Below the pieces are notes generated by a model that was given only the letters and a program-made list of their open reading frames with translations, made no database searches and was not told the DNA's origin. 19,830 nucleotides of DNA, from the IMG/VR virus record IMGVR_UViG_2537561977_000028. One strand, written 5' to 3'. The position numbers were made by a program, and so were the translations under genes. Positions within the stretch are counted from its first letter, which is position 1, and every line of letters begins with the position of its first letter. Source of the stretch: a virus. Lineage: Duplodnaviria; Heunggongvirae; Uroviricota; Caudoviricetes. Shown in pieces: positions 1 to 19,419 of this stretch.

Positions 1-1214
1 GTGAAACTCAATGCCCGTCAAATAGACACAGCCAAGCCAAAAGAGAAGGCTTACAAGCTGGCCGATGGTGGCGGTTTGTATCTCTTGGTAAAACCTAATG
101 GAGGTAAATACTGGCGACTTAAATATCGTGTAGCTGGTAAAGAGAAGCTATTGGCACTAGGTGTTTATCCTGAGGTTACTCTAGCCGATGCTCGGGCAAA
201 ACGTGAAGATGCGAAAAGAGGTATCGCTGGTGGTATCGATCCGATGGAAGCGAAACGAGAGGAAAAGATTGCCCGGGAAACGCAGTTAAACAACACCTTC
301 AAAGATATTGCCCTTGAGTGGCACAGCAGCAAATTAAAAAATGGTCTGCTGGTTATGCTTCAGACATCCTCGAAGCCTTCAACAAAGATGTGTTCCCTTA
401 CATTGGCAAAAAACCCATCGCCGAAATCAAACCACTTGAACTTCTGAATGTGCTGCGTCGCATCGAGGGGCGCGGTGCTACAGAAAAAGCCAAAAAAGTG
501 AGGCAACGGTGCGGGGAAGTTTTCCGCTATGCAATAGTCACTGGTCGCGCAGAGTATAACCCTGCACCAGACCTTACTAGCGCGATGCAAGGCCATGAAT
601 CTAATCATTACCCTTTCCTTACAGCCAAAGAATTACCTGATTTTTTCAAGGCATTGTCCAGTTACTCAGGAAGCGCATTGGTTGTTATGGCGGCTCGTCT
701 ACTGATTATCACCGGCTTGCGGACTGGCGAACTACGTGGCGCATTATGGGATGAAATTGATTTCAACAAGGCTATCTGGGAGATACCCGCTTCACGTATG
801 AAAATGCGGCGGCCTCATATTGTGCCATTGTCTGAGCAGGCTCTTTCGCTTATTGGGAAGATTAGAGAAATAACAGGCAATTACCCTCTTATGTTTCCCG
901 GGCGCAATGATCCAAGGAAAACAATGAGCGAGGCCAGCATAAACCAAGTGTTTAAGCGCATTGGCTACGCTGGACGTGTAACTGGTCATGGGTTCCGGCA
1001 CACTATGAGTACGATTTTGCATGAGCAGGGCTATAACACCGCGTGGATAGAAACGCAGCTCGCTCACGTTGATAAGAACTCAATTCGTGGCACATACAAC
1101 CATGCGCAATATCTGGATGGAAGGCGGGAGATGCTTCAATGGTATGCCGACTATATGGATTCTCTCGAGCATGACGGAAATGTGGTGCATATGGTGTTTG
1201 AAAAACACGCATGA
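1..1214 (+). pseudogene. int: P4/CP4-57-type tyrosine integrase (IntA-like), reading frame broken by an apparent -1 frameshift
   Basis: Frame-1 ORF 1..447 carries a typical P4-integrase N-terminus (KLADGGGLYLLVKPNGGKYWRLKYR). Frame-3 ORF 318..1214 carries the catalytic half (LRTGELRGALWDEIDF, HGFRHT, LAHVDKNSIRGTYNH). The frames meet at an A6 run (336-341); one extra A would give a continuous protein reading WHSSKLKKWSAGYAS. The GTG at position 1 may be the true start, or the start lies just upstream of the window. Confidence 0.85.
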
Positions 1215-1642: not shown

Positions 1643-1846
1643 ATGGCTAATTACAATTCATTAATTCGTCTCTCTGAAGTTCAAAGGCGAACTGGTTATA
1701 GCAAAGCATGGATTTATCGTCTTATTAGTCAGGGGAGGTTCCCTAAACAGGTAAAAATTGGAAGTCGGGCAATTGCTTTTGTTGAGTCTGAAATAGATGA
1801 ATGGATTGAGAAGTGTATATTAGAATCTAGAGACGAGGTGGCCTGA
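1643..1846 (+). CDS. alpA: AlpA-family (prophage CP4-57 regulatory protein) helix-turn-helix transcriptional regulator, 67 aa
   Basis: Translation LIRLSEVQRRTGYSKAWIYRLISQGRFPKQVKIGSRAIAFVESEIDEWI is the canonical AlpA/Xis-like HTH pattern. Position right after the integrase is typical of P4-like elements. Confidence 0.88.
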   Translation: MANYNSLIRLSEVQRRTGYSKAWIYRLISQGRFPKQVKIGSRAIAFVESEIDEWIEKCILESRDEVA

Positions 1847-4806: not shown

Positions 4807-4920
4807 CCAACATCCAGCTCATTGAAGCGCAATGTCGCATCGAACAGGTTCAGACTGTTTTAGGGTTCTGGCTTGAAGGGGCCATCCCCATGAAGTGGTC
4901 AACAAAAACTGGCCACCGAG

Positions 4921-6068
<1,148 letters not shown>

Positions 6069-6269
6069 TATGGCACCTGTGTTGTTCTGAGGTGAGCATA
6101 TCACCTCTGTTCAGGTGGCCAAATTCAGTAAACCACTTCACCAGCAACAGAGACAAGTTAATGATTGGCGCGGTTATGTCACTGCTCAATGGCGTACCAG
6201 AAGCTATTCAGGAAGCAGACGAATTGTTGGGCAAATATGAGTTACAGAATCATTCAGGCGAGGCGAAAC

Positions 6270-7224: not shown

Positions 7225-7588
7225 AAATGCAGAAATGGCGCTTAGCTCCGCAATCGGAGAGCAGGTGGCAAAGATTGCTGGTGCTGTGTGGATTCATAAC
7301 CTTCATTCTACTGGTGAAGAGAAAATGGCAATTCAGACGCCAGAGGGACGCACCATTACTACATCTCTGAAGCCGTCAGATGTTTGTGATCTGATTTGCG
7401 CATTCATGTACCCAGCAATGAGGACTGTCCACGGCGATAAGTGGAAACTTGCGACAACCGCTGAATTTGATATGTGGCTAAACAATGATGGCATGCTGAC
7501 TGATTACGGAATAACCAAGTGGCAGATGCTGGTTAGCCATATCGCAAACGCTATAGACCACGTGGGGTACGGTGATGCGAAACATTGA
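7217..7588 (+). CDS. Hypothetical protein, 123 aa
   Basis: Plus-strand ORF overlapping the primase start by 17 nt. Confidence 0.55.
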   Translation: MRENAEMALSSAIGEQVAKIAGAVWIHNLHSTGEEKMAIQTPEGRTITTSLKPSDVCDLICAFMYPAMRTVHGDKWKLATTAEFDMWLNNDGMLTDYGITKWQMLVSHIANAIDHVGYGDAKH

Positions 7589-10331
7589 TCTTATCCGTCA
7601 GGTTATCAGTGCGTCTGAAAACAACTGGCCTCATGTGCTGGGCTGCCTGAACATAAATGTCCCTGACTCTCCGCGCCGTCATGCTCCCTGCCCTGCATGT
7701 GGGGGCAAAGATCGATTCCGGTTCGATGACAACGGGCGCGGTAGCTTCATCTGTAATCAGTGCGGCGCTGGTGATGGGCTGGATTTAATTAAACGCGTAA
7801 ATAACTGCGACACAACAGAGGCGGCGCTTCTTGCCGCTGATGTTCTGGGTATTGATTACCGGACAACGGAAACACCAGAAGCCACCAGCCAGAAACGGGA
7901 ACAACTGGAAACCGAGCGCCAGCGACGCGAACAGGAGCGCCTGAAAAGGGCAGAGAAGGACGAACAACAAAGACGGGATACGTTTTCCCGTCAGTTTGAT
8001 GACATGCGCAGAAAGGCTGTAAACGGCAAATCTGATTATCTGGTTGCGAAAGGGGTAGGTGATTTTACATTCCCCGTGTTGCCCGATGGATCTCTGTTGC
8101 TGGCGCTGGTGGATAAATCCGGCGCAGTCACAGCAGCACAGACTATTACCTCACATGGTGAAAAAAGACTCCTGACAGGTTCAGCAAAGCGGGGGGCATA
8201 TCACGCCATAAACGCACCAGAAACAACACAGAGCATCTTAATCGCAGAAGGGCTGGCAACGGCATTATCTGCCCATTTAATTCGTCCAGAGGCGCTGACA
8301 GTGGCGGCGATTGATGCCGGGAACCTGTTATATGTCGCCCAGGTACTGCGGGATAAATATCCATCAGCACAAATCATCATTGCTGCGGATAACGACCACA
8401 GCGAAGGAAGACAAAACACGGGGAGAATAGCAGCAGAAAAAGCAGCTTTATCTGTTTCTGGATGGGTGGCATTACCCCCCACAGATCACAAAGCAGACTG
8501 GAATGATTACCACCAAAAACACGGCATTAAATGCGCCACAGAAGCGTTCAATAAGTCAATGTACCAACCACAGGGTAATGGCGTGAAACAGGAGCCACAG
8601 ACCATTGAGGGAAGCGATTTTAAGGTTATGGATACCGACCCACTGAAACCAAGAATAGAAAGCCGCGAGGATGGTATTTATTGGGTATCTCCGAGAGCTG
8701 ACAGCCAGAGTGGAGAAATCATCAATAACGAAAGCTGGTTATGTTCTCCGTTAAGCGTTATCGGTACTGGCAGAGACGATAAAGACCAGTATCTCATTCT
8801 TCGCTGGCTGTCGTTTGGTTCTGAAACGCCGACAACCGCTGCCATTCCACTGGCTGATATTGGTGAACGTGAAGGATGGCGCACACTTAAAGCTGGTGGG
8901 GTAAATGTCACGACCAAAAGCAGCCTCAGAGCAATACTGGCAGACTGGCTACAACGCAGTGGCTCTCGTGAATTGTGGCGTGTTGCTCATGCCACTGGCT
9001 GGCAATGCGGAGCGTACATCATGCCTGATGGGGAAATCATCGGAACACCTGAAAATCCTGTGCTGTTCAGCGGGAGAAGCTCAGCCGCAGCCGGATATAC
9101 CGTCTCAGGGAGCGCGAAAAGCTGGCGTGATAACGTGGCGCGTCTGGCCTTTGGTAACTATTCAATGATGACCGGGATCGGCGCAGCACTGGCAGCGCCA
9201 TTGATTGGGCTGGTGGGCGCTGACGGGTTCGGCATTCATTTCTATGAGCAGTCGAGCGCAGGTAAGACCACCACGGCAAACGTGGCGAGCAGCTTATACG
9301 GCAACCCTGATTTACTGCGGCTGACGTGGTACGGAACCGCGCTGGGGCTGGCAAATGAAGCCGCCGCCCACAATGACGGACTAATGCCGCTTGATGAAGT
9401 TGGTCAGGGCGCTGATCCTGTCAGTGTTTCACAGTCTGCCTATGCGTTATTTAACGGTGTAGGGAAACTGCAAGGCGCTAAAGATGGTGGAAACCGGGAT
9501 CTAAAACGCTGGCGTACAGTGGCAATCAGCACTGGAGAAATGGATTTAGAAACATTTATCGCTACTTCCGGGCGAAAAACCAAAGCCGGGCAACTGGTGC
9601 GACTGCTGAATATTCCGTTGAGTAAAGCAGTACGCTTTCACGATTACCAGAACGGAAAACAGCACGCAGACGCACTGAAAGACGCTTACCAGCATCACCA
9701 CGGCGCAGCCGGGCGTGAGTGGATTAAATGGCTGGCAGACCACCAGCAACAGGCAATTAAAACTGTTCGTGACTGCGAAAGCAGATGGAGAAGTCTGATC
9801 CCATCCGATTATGGTGAGCAGGTTCACCGTGTAGCCGCGCGATTTGCCATTCTGGAGGCCGCATTGCTGTTAGGCGAGGTTGTAACAGGCTGGGATGCTC
9901 AGACATGCCGTGATGCGATACAGCACAGCTATAACGCATGGTTGCGCGAGTTCGGCACAGGTAACAAAGAACATCAGCAGATTATTGAACAAACGGAGGC
10001 ATTTCTTAATGCCTATGGGCTTAGCCGTTTTGCACCATTTCCATACAGCCCGGCAGATTTGCCCATCAAAGATTTGGCCGGATACCGTCAGCGTGGAGAA
10101 CATGACGAAAGCCCAATGATTTTCTACACATTCCCGGCCACATTTGAAAAGGAGATCGCATGTGGTTTCAACGCAAAACAGTTTGCTGAAGTGTTGAAAA
10201 AAGCCGGGATGCTAACCCCACCAAACAGCGGTCGTGGATACCAAAGAAAATCACCACGTATTCAGGGACGACAAATAAACGTTTATGTACTCAATTACCA
10301 GCCAGGAGATTATAACTCATCTGAAGAATGA
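7572..10331 (+). CDS. P4-alpha-like replicative primase-helicase (zinc ribbon + TOPRIM primase + C-terminal P-loop NTPase of DUF927/D5 type), 919 aa
   Basis: Cys4 zinc ribbon CPACGGKDRFRFDD...FICNQCG; TOPRIM motifs ILIAEGLATAL and IIIAADND; P-loop-like FYEQSSAGKTTT. Likely start is the ATG at 7575 (the track starts at GTG 7572). Confidence 0.85.
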   Translation: MMRNIDLIRQVISASENNWPHVLGCLNINVPDSPRRHAPCPACGGKDRFRFDDNGRGSFICNQCGAGDGLDLIKRVNNCDTTEAALLAADVLGIDYRTTETPEATSQKREQLETERQRREQERLKRAEKDEQQRRDTFSRQFDDMRRKAVNGKSDYLVAKGVGDFTFPVLPDGSLLLALVDKSGAVTAAQTITSHGEKRLLTGSAKRGAYHAINAPETTQSILIAEGLATALSAHLIRPEALTVAAIDAGNLLYVAQVLRDKYPSAQIIIAADNDHSEGRQNTGRIAAEKAALSVSGWVALPPTDHKADWNDYHQKHGIKCATEAFNKSMYQPQGNGVKQEPQTIEGSDFKVMDTDPLKPRIESREDGIYWVSPRADSQSGEIINNESWLCSPLSVIGTGRDDKDQYLILRWLSFGSETPTTAAIPLADIGEREGWRTLKAGGVNVTTKSSLRAILADWLQRSGSRELWRVAHATGWQCGAYIMPDGEIIGTPENPVLFSGRSSAAAGYTVSGSAKSWRDNVARLAFGNYSMMTGIGAALAAPLIGLVGADGFGIHFYEQSSAGKTTTANVASSLYGNPDLLRLTWYGTALGLANEAAAHNDGLMPLDEVGQGADPVSVSQSAYALFNGVGKLQGAKDGGNRDLKRWRTVAISTGEMDLETFIATSGRKTKAGQLVRLLNIPLSKAVRFHDYQNGKQHADALKDAYQHHHGAAGREWIKWLADHQQQAIKTVRDCESRWRSLIPSDYGEQVHRVAARFAILEAALLLGEVVTGWDAQTCRDAIQHSYNAWLREFGTGNKEHQQIIEQTEAFLNAYGLSRFAPFPYSPADLPIKDLAGYRQRGEHDESPMIFYTFPATFEKEIACGFNAKQFAEVLKKAGMLTPPNSGRGYQRKSPRIQGRQINVYVLNYQPGDYNSSEE

Positions 10332-11093: not shown

Positions 11094-11495
11094 ATGGAAC
11101 TAAAATTTATTGATAACCCTGTGCGATTACAGGCCTTTCTTAACGATCCTGGCAATACCGAAAATATTGTTGAGCCGGGGCACACGTACTACATCAAGCC
11201 TGATGCGGTATATCTCGGCATCTACGAAGGATTGGTGCTGGCTGGCGTTCATGAAGTGCGTAACTTCTGGCATAGCATTGTTGAATGCCATGCGGTGTAC
11301 GACCCCGGATTCCGTGGTGAATATGCACTGCAAGGGCATCGATTATTCTGCAAATGGCTTCTCGAAAACTCACCATTCCTTAACAGCATCACTATGGTTC
11401 CTGACACCACGAAATACGGACGGGCAATTATCCGTTTGCCCGTGTTGGTCACCTTGATGATGCTTATATCAGATGTGGTAAACCCGTCGGCGTAA
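11094..11495 (+). CDS. Hypothetical protein, 133 aa; first gene of the cargo operon
   Basis: Protein-like translation. The overlapping frame ORF 11110..11457 is Trp/Cys-rich and looks non-coding. Confidence 0.6.
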   Translation: MELKFIDNPVRLQAFLNDPGNTENIVEPGHTYYIKPDAVYLGIYEGLVLAGVHEVRNFWHSIVECHAVYDPGFRGEYALQGHRLFCKWLLENSPFLNSITMVPDTTKYGRAIIRLPVLVTLMMLISDVVNPSA

Positions 11496-11538
11496 CGCTT
11501 TATCAGTTAACTCGGCAACAATATAAGGAATTCAGCGA

Positions 11539-12216
11539 ATGTTAATTACCCATATAGCTCATAAACATCTCAATCGTGCCGTATACGAAAAAGGCGGTGA
11601 TGGTGGTGCCTCTAAAGCTCAGGCGAAGGCCCAGCAGCAGGCAATTGATTTGCAGCGCGAGCAGTGGAATACGGTGATGAATAATCTCAAGCCGTATGCA
11701 GAAGTCGGATTGCCTGCTTTACAACAACTACAAGGACTGATGACTCTGGAAGGGCAGAATAAAGCCGCGAATGATTTCTTTGGTTCTGGTTTATATAAAA
11801 CACAGGCAGATCAGGCCCGTTATCAGAACCTTGTCTCAGCAGAAGCTACCGGGGGGCTTGGCTCAACAGCTACCAGTAACCAGTTATCTTCCATTGCGCC
11901 CATGCTTTATAACAATTGGCTTAGTGGGCAAATGCAAAATTATGGAAACCTGCTAAATGTCGGGATGAATGCGGCATCAGGGCAGGCAACGGCAGGGCAA
12001 AACTACGCCAATAATACCGGACAACTCTTGCAGGGGCTTGGCGCTATTCGTGCAGGTCAGGCGCAGCAGCCATCCAGTCTTGCGCGTGGTATTGGTGGGG
12101 CAGCATCAGGCGCTTTAGCGGGTGCGCAACTTGGTTCCGTTGTTCCTGGAATAGGTACTGCGGCAGGCGCTATTGGTGGTGGGCTTATTGGTCTTGTTGG
12201 GGGGCTTGGATTCTAA
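11539..12216 (+). CDS. Gln/Ala-rich protein with Gly-rich hydrophobic C-terminus, 225 aa; virion-internal/ejection-protein-like
   Basis: AAGGA RBS about 8 nt upstream. C-terminus GIGGAASGALAGAQLGSVVPGIGTAAGAIGGGLIGLVGGLGF. Stop overlaps the next start (TAATG). Confidence 0.7.
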   Translation: MLITHIAHKHLNRAVYEKGGDGGASKAQAKAQQQAIDLQREQWNTVMNNLKPYAEVGLPALQQLQGLMTLEGQNKAANDFFGSGLYKTQADQARYQNLVSAEATGGLGSTATSNQLSSIAPMLYNNWLSGQMQNYGNLLNVGMNAASGQATAGQNYANNTGQLLQGLGAIRAGQAQQPSSLARGIGGAASGALAGAQLGSVVPGIGTAAGAIGGGLIGLVGGLGF

Positions 12217-13535
12217 TGGCGACATGGCAACTTGGCGGGCTGCCTAGCATGGCACCGCAAAATGATAATGCTCCTCGTTCTTCCGTTCCTCAGCCTGTGC
12301 AGTATCAGCAGCAGCCAAACGTAGGTTTAATGGCGCTACAGGGGCTAAGAGGCGTTGCTGAGATTAATCAGCAGGCGCAAATTTCCCAGCAGCTAAAAGA
12401 ATATCAGGCACGGTTGGGTAGTGCGGTAGCTAATAATGATCGTGTTGGCGTGCAGAAGTTAATGGCCCAGTATCCCCAGTTTATGGCTGATTCTCAAAAA
12501 CAGATGGGATTCATTGATGCTGAGCAAAATCGGCAGACCGCTGACGCTGCCATGAATCTGCGTCTTGCGTCACAAACTGGAGATCCACTGACCATGCAGA
12601 AGGCCATTCAGCAGGCAAATCCAGTATTACAGCGATTTGGTCTTCCTGCTGAAGAGGTTTATCAGTCTTGGCAGAATGCCCCACAGGAATTCAACAGAAT
12701 CACTGACCTCATCCACCTCCATGCTGATCCAAATAGTTACTTTAGTGTTCAAGAGAAGCAGCAAGGGCAGAGTATTGCACAGCAGAACGCAGATACATCT
12801 GCATATAATGCTCAGGTTAATGCGGAACAGGGTAATCGGCGTCTCGATATGGAGCAGTTCAAAGTCCTATCCGATAACCAGCTACGCACGAGAGAAATGG
12901 TTCTGAAAGCACGACTTGGACGTGCTCAAAATGACATCGAGAGAGACAAGCTCAATGCTGAACTGAGCAAGGTACAGCAGGCGAAAGTGGAGAAGATGAA
13001 CGATAAAATTAATACTGTTGCAGGTAACATCGACTCCTTGAACTCTGCGCTTGAAGTGGGTCATGAACTGGCGGGAATTGTAGGGAAACATCCTTCGGCC
13101 GTTACCCGTTCGCAGAACTATAACCCCCTGACGCTGGGGTTTGGATTCCTTCCTGATGTAGCAGAAGACACACGAAGCCTACGCGCCAAAGCTGATGAAT
13201 ACAACCTAAAGGTTATTCTGCCTAGCCTCAAAGGGACTTTTGGCTCTAACCCAACCGAAGGGGAAAGGGCTGCCCTTATGCAATCTCAAAATGGCATTAA
13301 GTCAGCAACCAGCAATGAGGCATTTTTGCGAGAGTTGAATAAAGCGCAGGACGTAATTATTCGAATGCAGAAACGACAGATTGCCGGGCTCGGTATTCCT
13401 GTAACCAAATCTAAGGACGAAGAAACTGATACCAAAATGCTGTTGCAGGATCCTTCTCTGGTTAAGGATTATGTGACCGCACATGGCTATCTGCCGGAAA
13501 GTTACTATCAGGCAAAACTTAAGGGATGGCAATGA
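12216..13535 (+). CDS. Gln-rich coiled-coil protein, 439 aa; virion-internal/ejection-protein-like
   Basis: Long Q/A/N-rich heptad-like stretches (QQAQISQQLKEYQARLGSAVANN..., LDMEQFKVLSDNQLRTREMVLKARLGRAQNDIERDKLNAELSKVQQAKVEKMNDKIN). Overlaps neighbours at both ends. Confidence 0.7.
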   Translation: MATWQLGGLPSMAPQNDNAPRSSVPQPVQYQQQPNVGLMALQGLRGVAEINQQAQISQQLKEYQARLGSAVANNDRVGVQKLMAQYPQFMADSQKQMGFIDAEQNRQTADAAMNLRLASQTGDPLTMQKAIQQANPVLQRFGLPAEEVYQSWQNAPQEFNRITDLIHLHADPNSYFSVQEKQQGQSIAQQNADTSAYNAQVNAEQGNRRLDMEQFKVLSDNQLRTREMVLKARLGRAQNDIERDKLNAELSKVQQAKVEKMNDKINTVAGNIDSLNSALEVGHELAGIVGKHPSAVTRSQNYNPLTLGFGFLPDVAEDTRSLRAKADEYNLKVILPSLKGTFGSNPTEGERAALMQSQNGIKSATSNEAFLRELNKAQDVIIRMQKRQIAGLGIPVTKSKDEETDTKMLLQDPSLVKDYVTAHGYLPESYYQAKLKGWQ

Positions 13536-16252
13536 TGGCACAACTGACAGAAAAACAGAAAGCCTATTCCCGTCATCTCGATGAAAAATATGGTTTCCCA
13601 TCAGGGACGATGGAAACATTAGTTGGCAATGAATCTAGTGGTAACGGAAGTGCCGAGTCACCGAAAGGAGCTAGAGGATTTGCTCAACTGATGCCCTCAG
13701 TAATGAGTGATGCTGGTTATCGTGGAACAGATCCGCGCTCACTGCCATTTGAAAAGCAAATGGATATCGCAGCAAACCATCTCAATAAAGGAATGAAGCG
13801 ATTTGGTGATATAGGTATGGCATTGGCTGGGTATAATTCTGGCTATGCTCGTATTAATGCCGTAAGAAACGGTAAATCTACACTGCCAGATGAAACGGCT
13901 AATTACGTAAGTAAATTTGCAGATGCCGGAATAATCCCTGATGACAGTGAAATCTTGCAGTTTGCACAAACCAGTCAACATCGCAATCTTCAGCAGCCTG
14001 ACTACTCAGAGCTTGATAAAGAAATCTCTCAGGTGGGAGATATTTCTGCATGGGAAGCAAAACGTCAGCAATTTAAGAACATAGAAGCAGGACTACCAAC
14101 AGCCAGTTCATGGGAGCAGAAAAGAGCTCATTTTCTCGCCGATGAAAATGCCGGGGAACCGCAGCAGCAAGTAGCCAAGTCTAACCTTAATCCTGAGATG
14201 GAATATCTTTCGCCAGGACTGAAAGCTGCGCCAGAGCAGATGGCCAGAGGGATTGCTAATATACCGTTTGATGTAATGGACGCAGGCGTGGGGGTAGTCA
14301 ATGCGGCGCAATCAGCCGGAGCATGGGCAGCTCAGAAGCTTGGTGTGGGTGATGGTACATACACGCCCATATCACCTGTCTTTCGCCCAGTAGACCAACC
14401 TACAGATCCATACGCGCAGGCTGGTGAGCAGCTAGCACCTTACCTTATTACAGGATTAGGTGCAGGAAAGGCAGCTACCGCAGCTTCTTCAGTTGCCAAC
14501 GCTCCACGTGCTGAACGTGCGGCCACAAAGGTGGCTAGTATGTTGGCAGAAAACCTGCCAGGTACATTGGTGAACGCCCAAAAGAACGGGCAGATCAGCC
14601 CAGAAGACCTAGCAAAAGAGACAGGTATTGGCCTAGCAGGATCGCTAGGAGCACGCGCTTTAATAAAGAGCGGACAGACAGCCAGTGACGTAATGCGAGA
14701 TGTATTGCGGAGTAATACAAATCAATCAAGCTATGTGTTAGGGGCAGCAAATACTCTGGAAACCGCCAATGATGTATCGAAAGCAGCGCGTTCTGCCGTA
14801 GGCCGAGAGCATATCGCATCGCAGGCATCAAACGTCAGAGATGATGTCGCTAAGGCGGCGAAAATCACTGGTATTAATATCAACACCCTGACGCCTGGAA
14901 TGCGCTCAGGTAGTCGTGGAATTGCCCAAGCAGAAGGTGTTCTGGCATCAACTCCTGGGAATGTTCAGGATGCTCACCTTACGGCCTTCAATGAAATATC
15001 CTCAAAGTTGAATAAGCAGTTGTCTGATTTCGGTGCTGATTCTGGAAGCGCATCAGAAAAAAGCGCAGCAATTAAAGAGCGCATCATCGCGAGCCTCAGT
15101 GATATGAAAACAGCAGAGAATATGGCATGGGCAGAACTGCGAAGCACGATGCCACGCGAAAGGATGAAAATGAGTAATGGGATGGCTGTCGTCCAAGCAG
15201 AAAAAGCAGCCAATGTTCCACTCAGCCCGGAGATGAAACAGTTTCAGGCTGCCAACAACCAAGGTGGCGGCATAACCTTCGACGGGATGAAGGCATGGCG
15301 TGCTAAGTTTGCTGATGCTGAACAAGCAAACACCCGGGCAGGTAAGGCCAATGCCGCCCGGGTTGCCGGAGAAATGCGCAGAGCTATCACTGATGACATG
15401 CGCATCATGGCTGAAAAAGGAAACTTCCTCACAGAATGGCAGAAAGCTAACGATCTCTCTAAAAGTTACATTATCGCCAAACAAAATGCCGAATCTGTTT
15501 TTGGTCGAGATCTCGCATCAGACGCTATGGTAAGAAAAGGTGCCGATACGCTTAAGGCATCCGCAAACACTGGAACGGGAGCTTTTCACCGTCTTATCTC
15601 CGCGCAGCCGGAAGCAGAACGCCAACCAGCAATAGCATCTATTCTTCAGCATGCTGTGGCGCAGGGAGAGAAGGGAGGAATCGGTGAAGAGTCTGGTATC
15701 CAGTATTTTGCCAAGCTCATGACCCAGCAGAATGTAAACGCCATCAGTCGTCATGCGCCAGATCTCGGTAGAATGATGAAAGAGTTCGGTGTACTCGCTA
15801 AAGCCAGCACCAGACCGCAGCGATACGTAGAGCGCACGGGAAGAACAACTGAGGCTCTCAAAACGCTCGATTCAGGCCTTCCAAAGATCGTCGGCGTGAT
15901 TATGAACGGAGTTCAACAGTCAGGTGCGATCGCTGGAGGCTTTGGCGGTGGTGTAATTGGTTCGATTAGTGGTTTGGTTGCTGGTGGCGCGCTGAGAAAT
16001 ACTGTGGCTAAGATTGGGGCGACAAGAAGTGGTCGATATGCGATAGAGAAAGCCGTTCAGGAAGCTACAAAAGCAGTGCGCGCAGGGGCATCACCAGCAG
16101 CGATCGCCGCAGCAGAGAAACGATTTTCGGCCAATAAAATTGCCATGAAAGCAATTCGTGATGCCGTTGGGGCTGAAGAATTCGTGAAACTGACAAGGGC
16201 CGGGATTGTAGCTACCCTCAGTGGCATGAAAGATGTTAGCGAATGGGAATAG
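13526..16252 (+). CDS. Large protein with N-terminal lytic transglycosylase (SLT) domain, Ala/Gln-rich central region and Gly-rich hydrophobic C-terminal segment, 908 aa
   Basis: SLT family-1 motifs: catalytic E-S in LVGNESSGNGSAESPKGARGFAQLMP and the AYNxG-type motif ALAGYNSGYARINAV. C-terminal GAIAGGFGGGVIGSISGLVAGGAL. Real start may be the ATG at 13532 or 13535, which are better spaced from the AAGGGA. Confidence 0.75.
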   Translation: MAMMAQLTEKQKAYSRHLDEKYGFPSGTMETLVGNESSGNGSAESPKGARGFAQLMPSVMSDAGYRGTDPRSLPFEKQMDIAANHLNKGMKRFGDIGMALAGYNSGYARINAVRNGKSTLPDETANYVSKFADAGIIPDDSEILQFAQTSQHRNLQQPDYSELDKEISQVGDISAWEAKRQQFKNIEAGLPTASSWEQKRAHFLADENAGEPQQQVAKSNLNPEMEYLSPGLKAAPEQMARGIANIPFDVMDAGVGVVNAAQSAGAWAAQKLGVGDGTYTPISPVFRPVDQPTDPYAQAGEQLAPYLITGLGAGKAATAASSVANAPRAERAATKVASMLAENLPGTLVNAQKNGQISPEDLAKETGIGLAGSLGARALIKSGQTASDVMRDVLRSNTNQSSYVLGAANTLETANDVSKAARSAVGREHIASQASNVRDDVAKAAKITGININTLTPGMRSGSRGIAQAEGVLASTPGNVQDAHLTAFNEISSKLNKQLSDFGADSGSASEKSAAIKERIIASLSDMKTAENMAWAELRSTMPRERMKMSNGMAVVQAEKAANVPLSPEMKQFQAANNQGGGITFDGMKAWRAKFADAEQANTRAGKANAARVAGEMRRAITDDMRIMAEKGNFLTEWQKANDLSKSYIIAKQNAESVFGRDLASDAMVRKGADTLKASANTGTGAFHRLISAQPEAERQPAIASILQHAVAQGEKGGIGEESGIQYFAKLMTQQNVNAISRHAPDLGRMMKEFGVLAKASTRPQRYVERTGRTTEALKTLDSGLPKIVGVIMNGVQQSGAIAGGFGGGVIGSISGLVAGGALRNTVAKIGATRSGRYAIEKAVQEATKAVRAGASPAAIAAAEKRFSANKIAMKAIRDAVGAEEFVKLTRAGIVATLSGMKDVSEWE

Positions 16253-18497: not shown

Positions 18498-18627
18498 GTT
18501 GGTTCAGAGCTGGGCTGTGTTGGTTCAAAATGAGTTGATGTTGGTTCAATATTTCAGAAAAAACACAATAAAAACAACGATATTTACAAATTGAACCAAC
18601 TGAACCAACTGAACCAACTGAACCAAC
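18498..18627. promoter_or_regulatory. Iteron cluster B: 3 spaced GTTGGTTCA, 43-bp AT-rich spacer, 4 tandem TGAACCAAC; inverted copy of cluster A
   Basis: GTTGGTTCA at 18498-18506, 18519-18527, 18540-18548. AT-rich spacer 18549-18591. TGAACCAAC at 18592-18600, 18601-18609, 18610-18618, 18619-18627. Its reverse complement aligns with cluster A. Confidence 0.65.
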
Positions 18628-18951: not shown

Positions 18952-19419
18952 TGCTCTCTCTGTTTTGGCAAATTACCCCTCACTTTGAAGGGATCGGAGC
19001 TATAAAAATGGTTTTAGGTACATTCCTCAAATTGAGGATTGTGGGAAAACCAATGGGTTAGGCTTTTCCCCCAATGGGGGTTTTCGAAAGAATCAATGGG
19101 TTAGTCCATCGTGCAAATTTGCACCCTGCCAGCCAACGCAATTTCTCGTTGGCGAAAATATCAGGTATTTACTGAACGAACGGTCTACCAGTCTGTTCAG
19201 TTACCAGTTGTACATGGCTGCTTTATGTGCAAATGGTGGTGAGAGAAAATTGTTTGGGGGTACTTTTGGGGGTATCTCCAAATACGCAATGGGGAAATGT
19301 CTTTATATATCAATGTATTTTTATTGTTTGTTTTGTTCCTATTATCGCATTTGTGCCATTGTAACCTTGGCAATTCATCAAAATACTGTTCTGACATCAG
19401 GCAGTGCAGGTGCAGCTAT

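Follow-up and report, generated by a model that had tools for sequence, protein, structure and literature searches.

The window, a stretch of 19,830 nt, opens on an integrase gene that is spread over two reading frames around a short run of adenines. The question raised by this locus is whether the broken frame is a sequencing error, an inactivating mutation or an arrangement that the element uses, through frameshifting or otherwise. The window belongs to the E. coli LT-68 draft contig ADUP01000052.1 (assembly GCA_000188815.2), its position 1 being position 9684 of locus L005, with identical sequence. LT-68 is named as an ETEC strain in the literature, and its record, judged by the accession series, is presumably a draft of about 2010-2011.

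A P4-type integrase beside thrW

Positions 331-344 of the window read AAATT-AAAAAA-TGG, with a run of six adenines (A6) at 336-341 on the plus strand. Alignment to the orthologous loci L001 and L002 and to Logan contigs identifies this tract as the site of a one-base loss, the orthologues having seven adenines (A7). The first integrase piece occupies 1-447 on the plus strand (frame 1, 148 aa); it starts with a GTG that matches the annotated CDS start in L001 and L002 and ends with a TGA stop at 445-447. Its codons 1-113 are native and carry the arm-type DNA-binding domain (residues 3-88; PF13356, E 2e-29), and they are followed by 35 out-of-frame codons. The second piece, at 318-1214 on the plus strand (frame 3, 298 aa), is an ORF that begins at an internal GTG, runs in the native frame from 336 on and has been deposited as EFZ56745.1 under the title 'putative prophage CPS-53 integrase [Escherichia coli LT-68]'. 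It contains the remaining core-binding domain (PF22022, E 4e-30) and the complete catalytic domain (PF00589, E 5e-27). The 130-bp overlap of the two ORFs (318-447) is a consequence of the positions of the stop codons in each frame, not a feature in itself.

With one A inserted, the two pieces merge into a continuous ORF of 404 aa, which at the junction reads ...WHSSKLKKWSAGYAS... / ...EWHSSKLKKWSAGYAS.... No compensating second indel was found, the two frames remaining separate to the end, and the minus-strand ORFs over 318-447 (165-332 and 360-608) are short and without support. All integrase domains lie in one 404-aa ORF in the orthologues and in no single uninterrupted frame in the window. 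The first-pass annotation had located both the A6 run and the ORF overlap at the right coordinates and had described the break as lying between the N-terminal and catalytic halves of the protein. The division of the integrase over two frames stands, whereas the break itself is at codon 113/114, within the core-binding domain.

We searched the repaired protein against Pfam and found three domains, namely Arm-DNA-bind_3 (PF13356, DUF4102; residues 3-88, E 1e-28), Phage_int_M (PF22022; residues 100-194, E 1e-34) and Phage_integrase (PF00589; residues 206-371, E 1e-26, covering profile positions 2-170 of 172), the last of which is also found in the 298-aa ORF. The break falls in the first part of Phage_int_M. 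The matches in the PDB were 3ju0, 3jtz and 2kj8, of which 2kj8, the structure of the CPS-53 integrase core-binding domain, aligns to residues 96-202 (E 1e-35). Candidate catalytic residues, located by pattern, are TGLR(241), K268, H330-x-x-R333, H356 and Y366 in repaired numbering, the match to lambda Int spanning only residues 138-331.

Just upstream of position 1 of the window, which itself contains no tRNA gene, lies thrW, a tRNA-Thr(CGT) gene at L005 9443-9518. It follows proB-proA, with 165 nt between its end and the start codon of the integrase, and thrW is the attachment site of P22. At the opposite end of the element, an 11-nt sequence, TCCTATTATCG, at 19337-19347 on the plus strand repeats the 3' terminus of thrW, and here similarity to relatives changes from island to chromosome (on the LysR remnant/paoD side, junction 19346-19349). 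This repeat probably forms the core of attR and marks where the island ends on the right; as it is short, the exact crossover site is a putative one. The adjacency of thrW and the integrase gene is also found in hundreds of E. coli genomes, and the same layout is present in E. coli SLK172, RM10386, PF9285 and HCP6S3_I2, where the annotation gives an intact 404-aa 'tyrosine-type recombinase/integrase'.

Comparison with relatives and domain searches together outline an island of ~19.5 kb inserted at thrW, with the gene order integrase, AlpA, AntA/B-like protein, Ash-family protein, several small ORFs, primase, P22-type block and PerC-like regulator. The AlpA-family gene (1643-1846, plus strand) encodes an intact small HTH protein of 67 aa (PF05930, E 7e-20), equal in length to WP_000035054.1 of the relatives. 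P4/CP4-type integrases usually have such a protein as their directionality or regulatory partner. The intergenic region that separates the integrase gene from alpA contains, at 1358-1420 on the plus strand, two direct repeats of 26-27 nt (CGCTGACAAAGCG.AAT.GTTCTTTAA), 36 nt apart, of which HCP6S3_I2 has one copy only, visible as a 36-nt indel. These repeats may be protein-binding sites of the recombination module, either for arm-type binding by the integrase or for AlpA.

By its domain architecture, tRNA linkage and AlpA neighbour, the gene is a P4/CP4-57/CPS-53-type arm-binding tyrosine integrase. Integrases of this type (IntS of CPS-53, IntA of CP4-57, P4 Int, and WP_000772643.1 and relatives) have the same three-domain architecture and, as in the LT-68 island, follow directly on a tRNA gene and have an AlpA-family gene close by. 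The LT-68 gene differs from them in the frame broken at codon 113/114 by the change from A7 to A6.

Further into the island, domain searches identified a Zn-ribbon/TOPRIM/DUF927 primase at 7572-10331 and a P22-type gene block 14-7-20-16 at 11094-16252. The latter follows the P22 order, with a gp14-like protein (DUF2824), gp7, a gp20-like injectosome translocase and a 908-aa protein combining an SLT lytic transglycosylase with a gp16-like DNA-transfer protein. A P4-like module of integrase, AlpA and primase is here paired with a P22-type block, and the island has no capsid, terminase or tail genes. It looks like a satellite or remnant with its own ejection proteins, and may be a parasite of P22-like phages.

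The missing base and other lesions of the island

Adding one A had been predicted to restore the integrase, and the resulting 404-aa product is 100% identical to P0026, a protein with D392 that is recorded on at least 1000 public contigs. P0025, which has G392 instead, is likewise found on at least 1000 contigs. Source names of P0026 are from Salmonella enterica, and G392 is the allele of the complete E. coli genomes examined; this distribution hints that the integrase module moves between genera.

The comparison of homopolymer length with orthologous integrases, proposed as a check in the first-pass annotation, came out in favour of a missing base. SLK172 and RM10386 both have A7 and an intact annotated 404-aa integrase, and besides the missing A they differ from the window by 1 or 2 bases in 1300. 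Among complete E. coli genomes, the best matches to the A6 query were 121 of 122 nt, and all 40 matches listed span 122 nt, which corresponds to A7; no exact A6 copy was among the matches listed. The exact A6 pattern was absent from GTDB species representatives and from JGI metagenome contigs, the exact A7 pattern being present in two of the species representatives (Escherichia sp. and E. ruysiae).

Relative to RM10386, the 13,983 nt compared have no gap other than the A tract, which is also the only 1-nt indel relative to PF9285 over ~17.5 kb and the only one in the ~27 kb compared in all. Another 33 runs of at least 6 nt in 29.5 kb of LT-68 (four of 7 nt and 29 of 6 nt) show no discrepancy with close relatives. 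They include the A7 and A6 runs of proA and the A6 and T6 runs of int, which show no difference in LT-68 and are wrong in error-prone assemblies.

The same change from A7 to A6 was found in 12 other public contigs, with the frameshifted tail …KLKNGLLVML… in nine protein variants. At least four of the assemblies concerned, GCA_033660265.1, GCA_041363795.1, SRR28063714 and ERR14116628, have other homopolymer deletions, which break proA, proB or phoE or fall elsewhere in int. In GCA_033660265.1, bases are missing from the A7 and A6 runs of proA and from the A6 and T6 runs of int, and in GCA_041363795.1 proB is in three pieces. Three otherwise clean contigs from unrelated samples (ERR15602634, ERR4562847 and ERR9538818) have A6 as their only coding indel. 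In 5 kb of flank, 39 SNPs separate ERR15602634 from LT-68; ERR4562847 is unlike LT-68 at the 3' end of int and in the downstream region, and the flank of ERR9538818 is much more divergent. We had considered that Logan runs with the exact 148-aa fragment might be resequencing of LT-68, which was rejected for ERR15602634 by the flanking SNPs and for ERR4562847 by the differences in and downstream of int.

Since the identical change occurs in clean contigs on different backgrounds, the A tract slips in nature too. Its presence in both error-ridden and clean contigs therefore makes the site an error hotspot and a natural slippage hotspot at once. E. coli genes have a deficit of A7 and T7 runs, for which high indel rates or transcriptional slippage have been suggested as possible reasons (PMC4066793).

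Two further genes of the island carry lesions of another kind. The IS insertion mentioned in the first-pass annotation is real: an IS911-like element of the IS3 family, 1250 bp long and 98.4% identical to annotated IS911, lies at 4891-6140 on the minus strand. It interrupts a small island gene for a 73-aa hypothetical protein that is conserved in related islands. Its ends are 27-nt imperfect terminal inverted repeats (TGAAGTGG...), flanked by a CCA target duplication at 4888-4890 and 6141-6143. The element is apparently intact and has the hallmarks of IS911/IS3, with an orfA of 100 aa, an open orfB and a -1 frameshift site TTA AAA AAG giving the junction ...ILKKA.... No complete E. coli genome has an IS911-like element at this site, the best coverage of the whole window being 92%.

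The second lesion is a 10-bp deletion at ~11439/11440 in the P22 gp14-like (DUF2824) gene (11094-11495, plus strand), which truncates the product to 133 aa compared with 153 aa in relatives. None of the 643 complete E. coli genomes with the region has this deletion (the best full-length matches cover 101 nt and contain a gap of 10 nt). Relative to PF9285, there are also a 13-bp intergenic deletion at ~17496 and, ahead of the PerC-like gene, a tandem duplication of 9 bp (TGAACCAAC) at ~18592-18609.

Mutation, artefact or functional frameshift

The first-pass annotation had left the choice between a homopolymer sequencing error and an inactivating mutation, and we find evidence on both sides. 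That the loss of one A in LT-68 is a real and very recent inactivating slippage mutation has, in our assessment, an even chance of being right. It is also quite possible, with a likelihood somewhat short of even, that the strain has A7 and an intact integrase and that one base of the homopolymer was missed in the draft consensus. A6 has no exact counterpart in the complete E. coli matches listed, the species representatives or the metagenome contigs, and the LT-68 protein, once repaired, is fully identical to one recorded on at least 1000 contigs. Both fit an undercall, and assemblies whose essential neighbouring genes contain multiple homopolymer deletions show the same undercall. Errors of this size are typical of flow-based and nanopore chemistries. 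In ~2010-2011 pyrosequencing, a method that undercalls long homopolymers, was in common use, and the draft, an old WGS assembly in which one contig of 231 kb runs across an IS copy, would be compatible with a paired-end assembly of the 454 type. In a 454-only draft, residual errors at 7-nt runs are roughly estimated at ~1-10% per run, and the natural frequency of A6 (~3-4 clean contigs versus thousands) is far below this rate. The integrase gene is otherwise undamaged, an appearance equally expected of a sequencing error.

Against an undercall, the ~27 kb of LT-68 compared show no further homopolymer discrepancy, and the A6 allele is present in clean contigs of other samples. The IS911-like insertion and the 10-bp deletion, found in no complete genome searched, are not products of sequencing chemistry, and because the island has these two further lesions outside homopolymers, the prior for genuine decay is raised. 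Taken by itself, the evidence from the tools is near balance, with a slight lean to a real lesion, and the likely platform pulls the opposite way. The A7 tract has been miscalled in several public long-read assemblies, and a frameshift called here without read support is unreliable as biology.

Beyond mutation and undercall, the tract might serve the element through frameshifting. It contains A_AAA_AAT at 336-342 in frame 1 (context TTA AAA AAT), a slippery heptamer of the form X_XXY_YYZ directly at the frame junction. It resembles the -1 sites of IS1 (A_AAA_AAC) and of IS911/IS3 (A_AAA_AAG), a likeness in sequence only. In contrast to these systems, the two-frame layout of the integrase is not conserved, no stimulatory element accompanies it and the ancestral state is a single frame: all 40 matches listed have A7, and P0025 and P0026 are each on at least 1000 contigs. 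We considered an RNA structure 3' of the tract as a stimulator and rejected it, the fold of 325-420 (-16.3 kcal/mol, z = -0.53 versus shuffles) being no better than chance, and by eye no Shine-Dalgarno-like element was seen upstream of the A tract. Programmed frameshifting had not been expected for an integrase, an expectation borne out by A7 in the best-matching complete genomes, by the abundance of both intact alleles and by the RNA after the tract, which has no stimulatory structure.

A weaker form of the idea is that the allele is leaky or reversible, the A6 gene yielding a little full-length integrase, through -1 ribosomal slippage on A_AAA_AAT or transcriptional slippage on the A run, or representing an OFF state that reverts by slippage. 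Slippage of the P-site Lys-tRNA would then give the wild-type KLKKW junction, and tandem slippage KLKNW. We regard such an allele as very unlikely. The heptamer TTA AAA AAT is a true one and is like the A_AAA_AAC of IS1, a proven case of frameshifting without an established stimulator (PMC4066793), low-level compensatory frameshifting has a precedent at homopolymer indels in the G7 tract of herpesvirus TK (PMC5009743), and A6 recurs on several backgrounds. Yet the layout is not conserved and the RNA has no structure beyond chance. Moreover, frameshifting by the motif alone in E. coli rises at most ~10-fold over a background of 0.055%, A_AAA_AAC is of low efficiency, and A_AAA_AAU is absent from the motifs listed above 0.1% (PMC4066793). 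A tract of 6-7 nt is also shorter than classical contingency tracts. In a phase-variable locus both tract lengths would be common in relatives; here about 12 A6 contigs, several of them error-ridden, stand against thousands with A7. Any leak would be incidental, not evolved. It is highly improbable, even more so than leakiness as such, that the tract is a crude reversible switch or leaky site at which A6 locks the island and then reverts or yields trace integrase, with the recurrence of A6 reflecting function and not noise.

The two ORFs might, finally, be a functional split integrase, fragment 1-447 and the fragment from the GTG at 318 both being made and cooperating in trans. Both ORFs are open, each with complete or near-complete Pfam domains, but no Shine-Dalgarno-like sequence precedes GTG 318, the second fragment lacks the first ~13 core-binding residues and the first has a 35-residue nonsense tail. 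No homologue has the split arrangement as a conserved state, and the bridging of arm and core sites by one polypeptide is central to lambda-type integrases. We give this arrangement next to no credence. In either of the two main readings nothing programmed or regulatory is involved, the A6 integrase being an ordinary pseudogene or a sequencing slip with no new mechanism behind it.

Consequences for the island

If the lesion is a real mutation, one A would have been lost from the A7 tract at codons Lys113-Lys114, the simplest route being slipped-strand mispairing during replication. Ribosomes starting at the native GTG would then produce 113 correct and 35 wrong residues before terminating at 445-447. 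The arm-binding domain would thereby be parted from the core-binding and catalytic domains, leaving no protein that could join arm and core att sites. In lambda-type integrases these sites have to be bridged by a single chain with both the arm-binding and the core/catalytic parts, and the domain architecture would predict an island without excision or re-integration of its own. Such a lesion would be very young, as the gene has no other damage and its repaired product matches a common intact protein exactly.

Taken together, the integrase, IS911-like and gp14-like lesions suggest an element that is decaying in place and is probably immobilised. The first-pass annotation had suggested that an inactivating mutation, together with the IS insertion, would point to a domesticated, immobile island; of this, immobility is the part that holds as probable, whereas domestication, in the sense of functions recruited by the host, overstates the case. 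Frameshifted integrase pseudogenes are found in the cryptic prophages and degraded islands of E. coli and Shigella, and LT-68 likewise combines an apparent 1-base homopolymer indel, an IS insertion and a small deletion. Compared with those degraded islands, the one in LT-68 has decayed little and recently, and its att-like repeat, AlpA, primase and most of its cargo genes are still intact.

A frameshifted homopolymer in an integrase gene beside an IS is routine for island or prophage decay and equally routine as a draft-assembly error, so that nothing here is new in kind. If the missing base is an artefact, the 298-aa 'integrase' EFZ56745.1 is a mis-split gene. If it is real, LT-68 has a thrW island that probably can no longer leave the chromosome and is turning into a cryptic remnant, a common and well-described fate.
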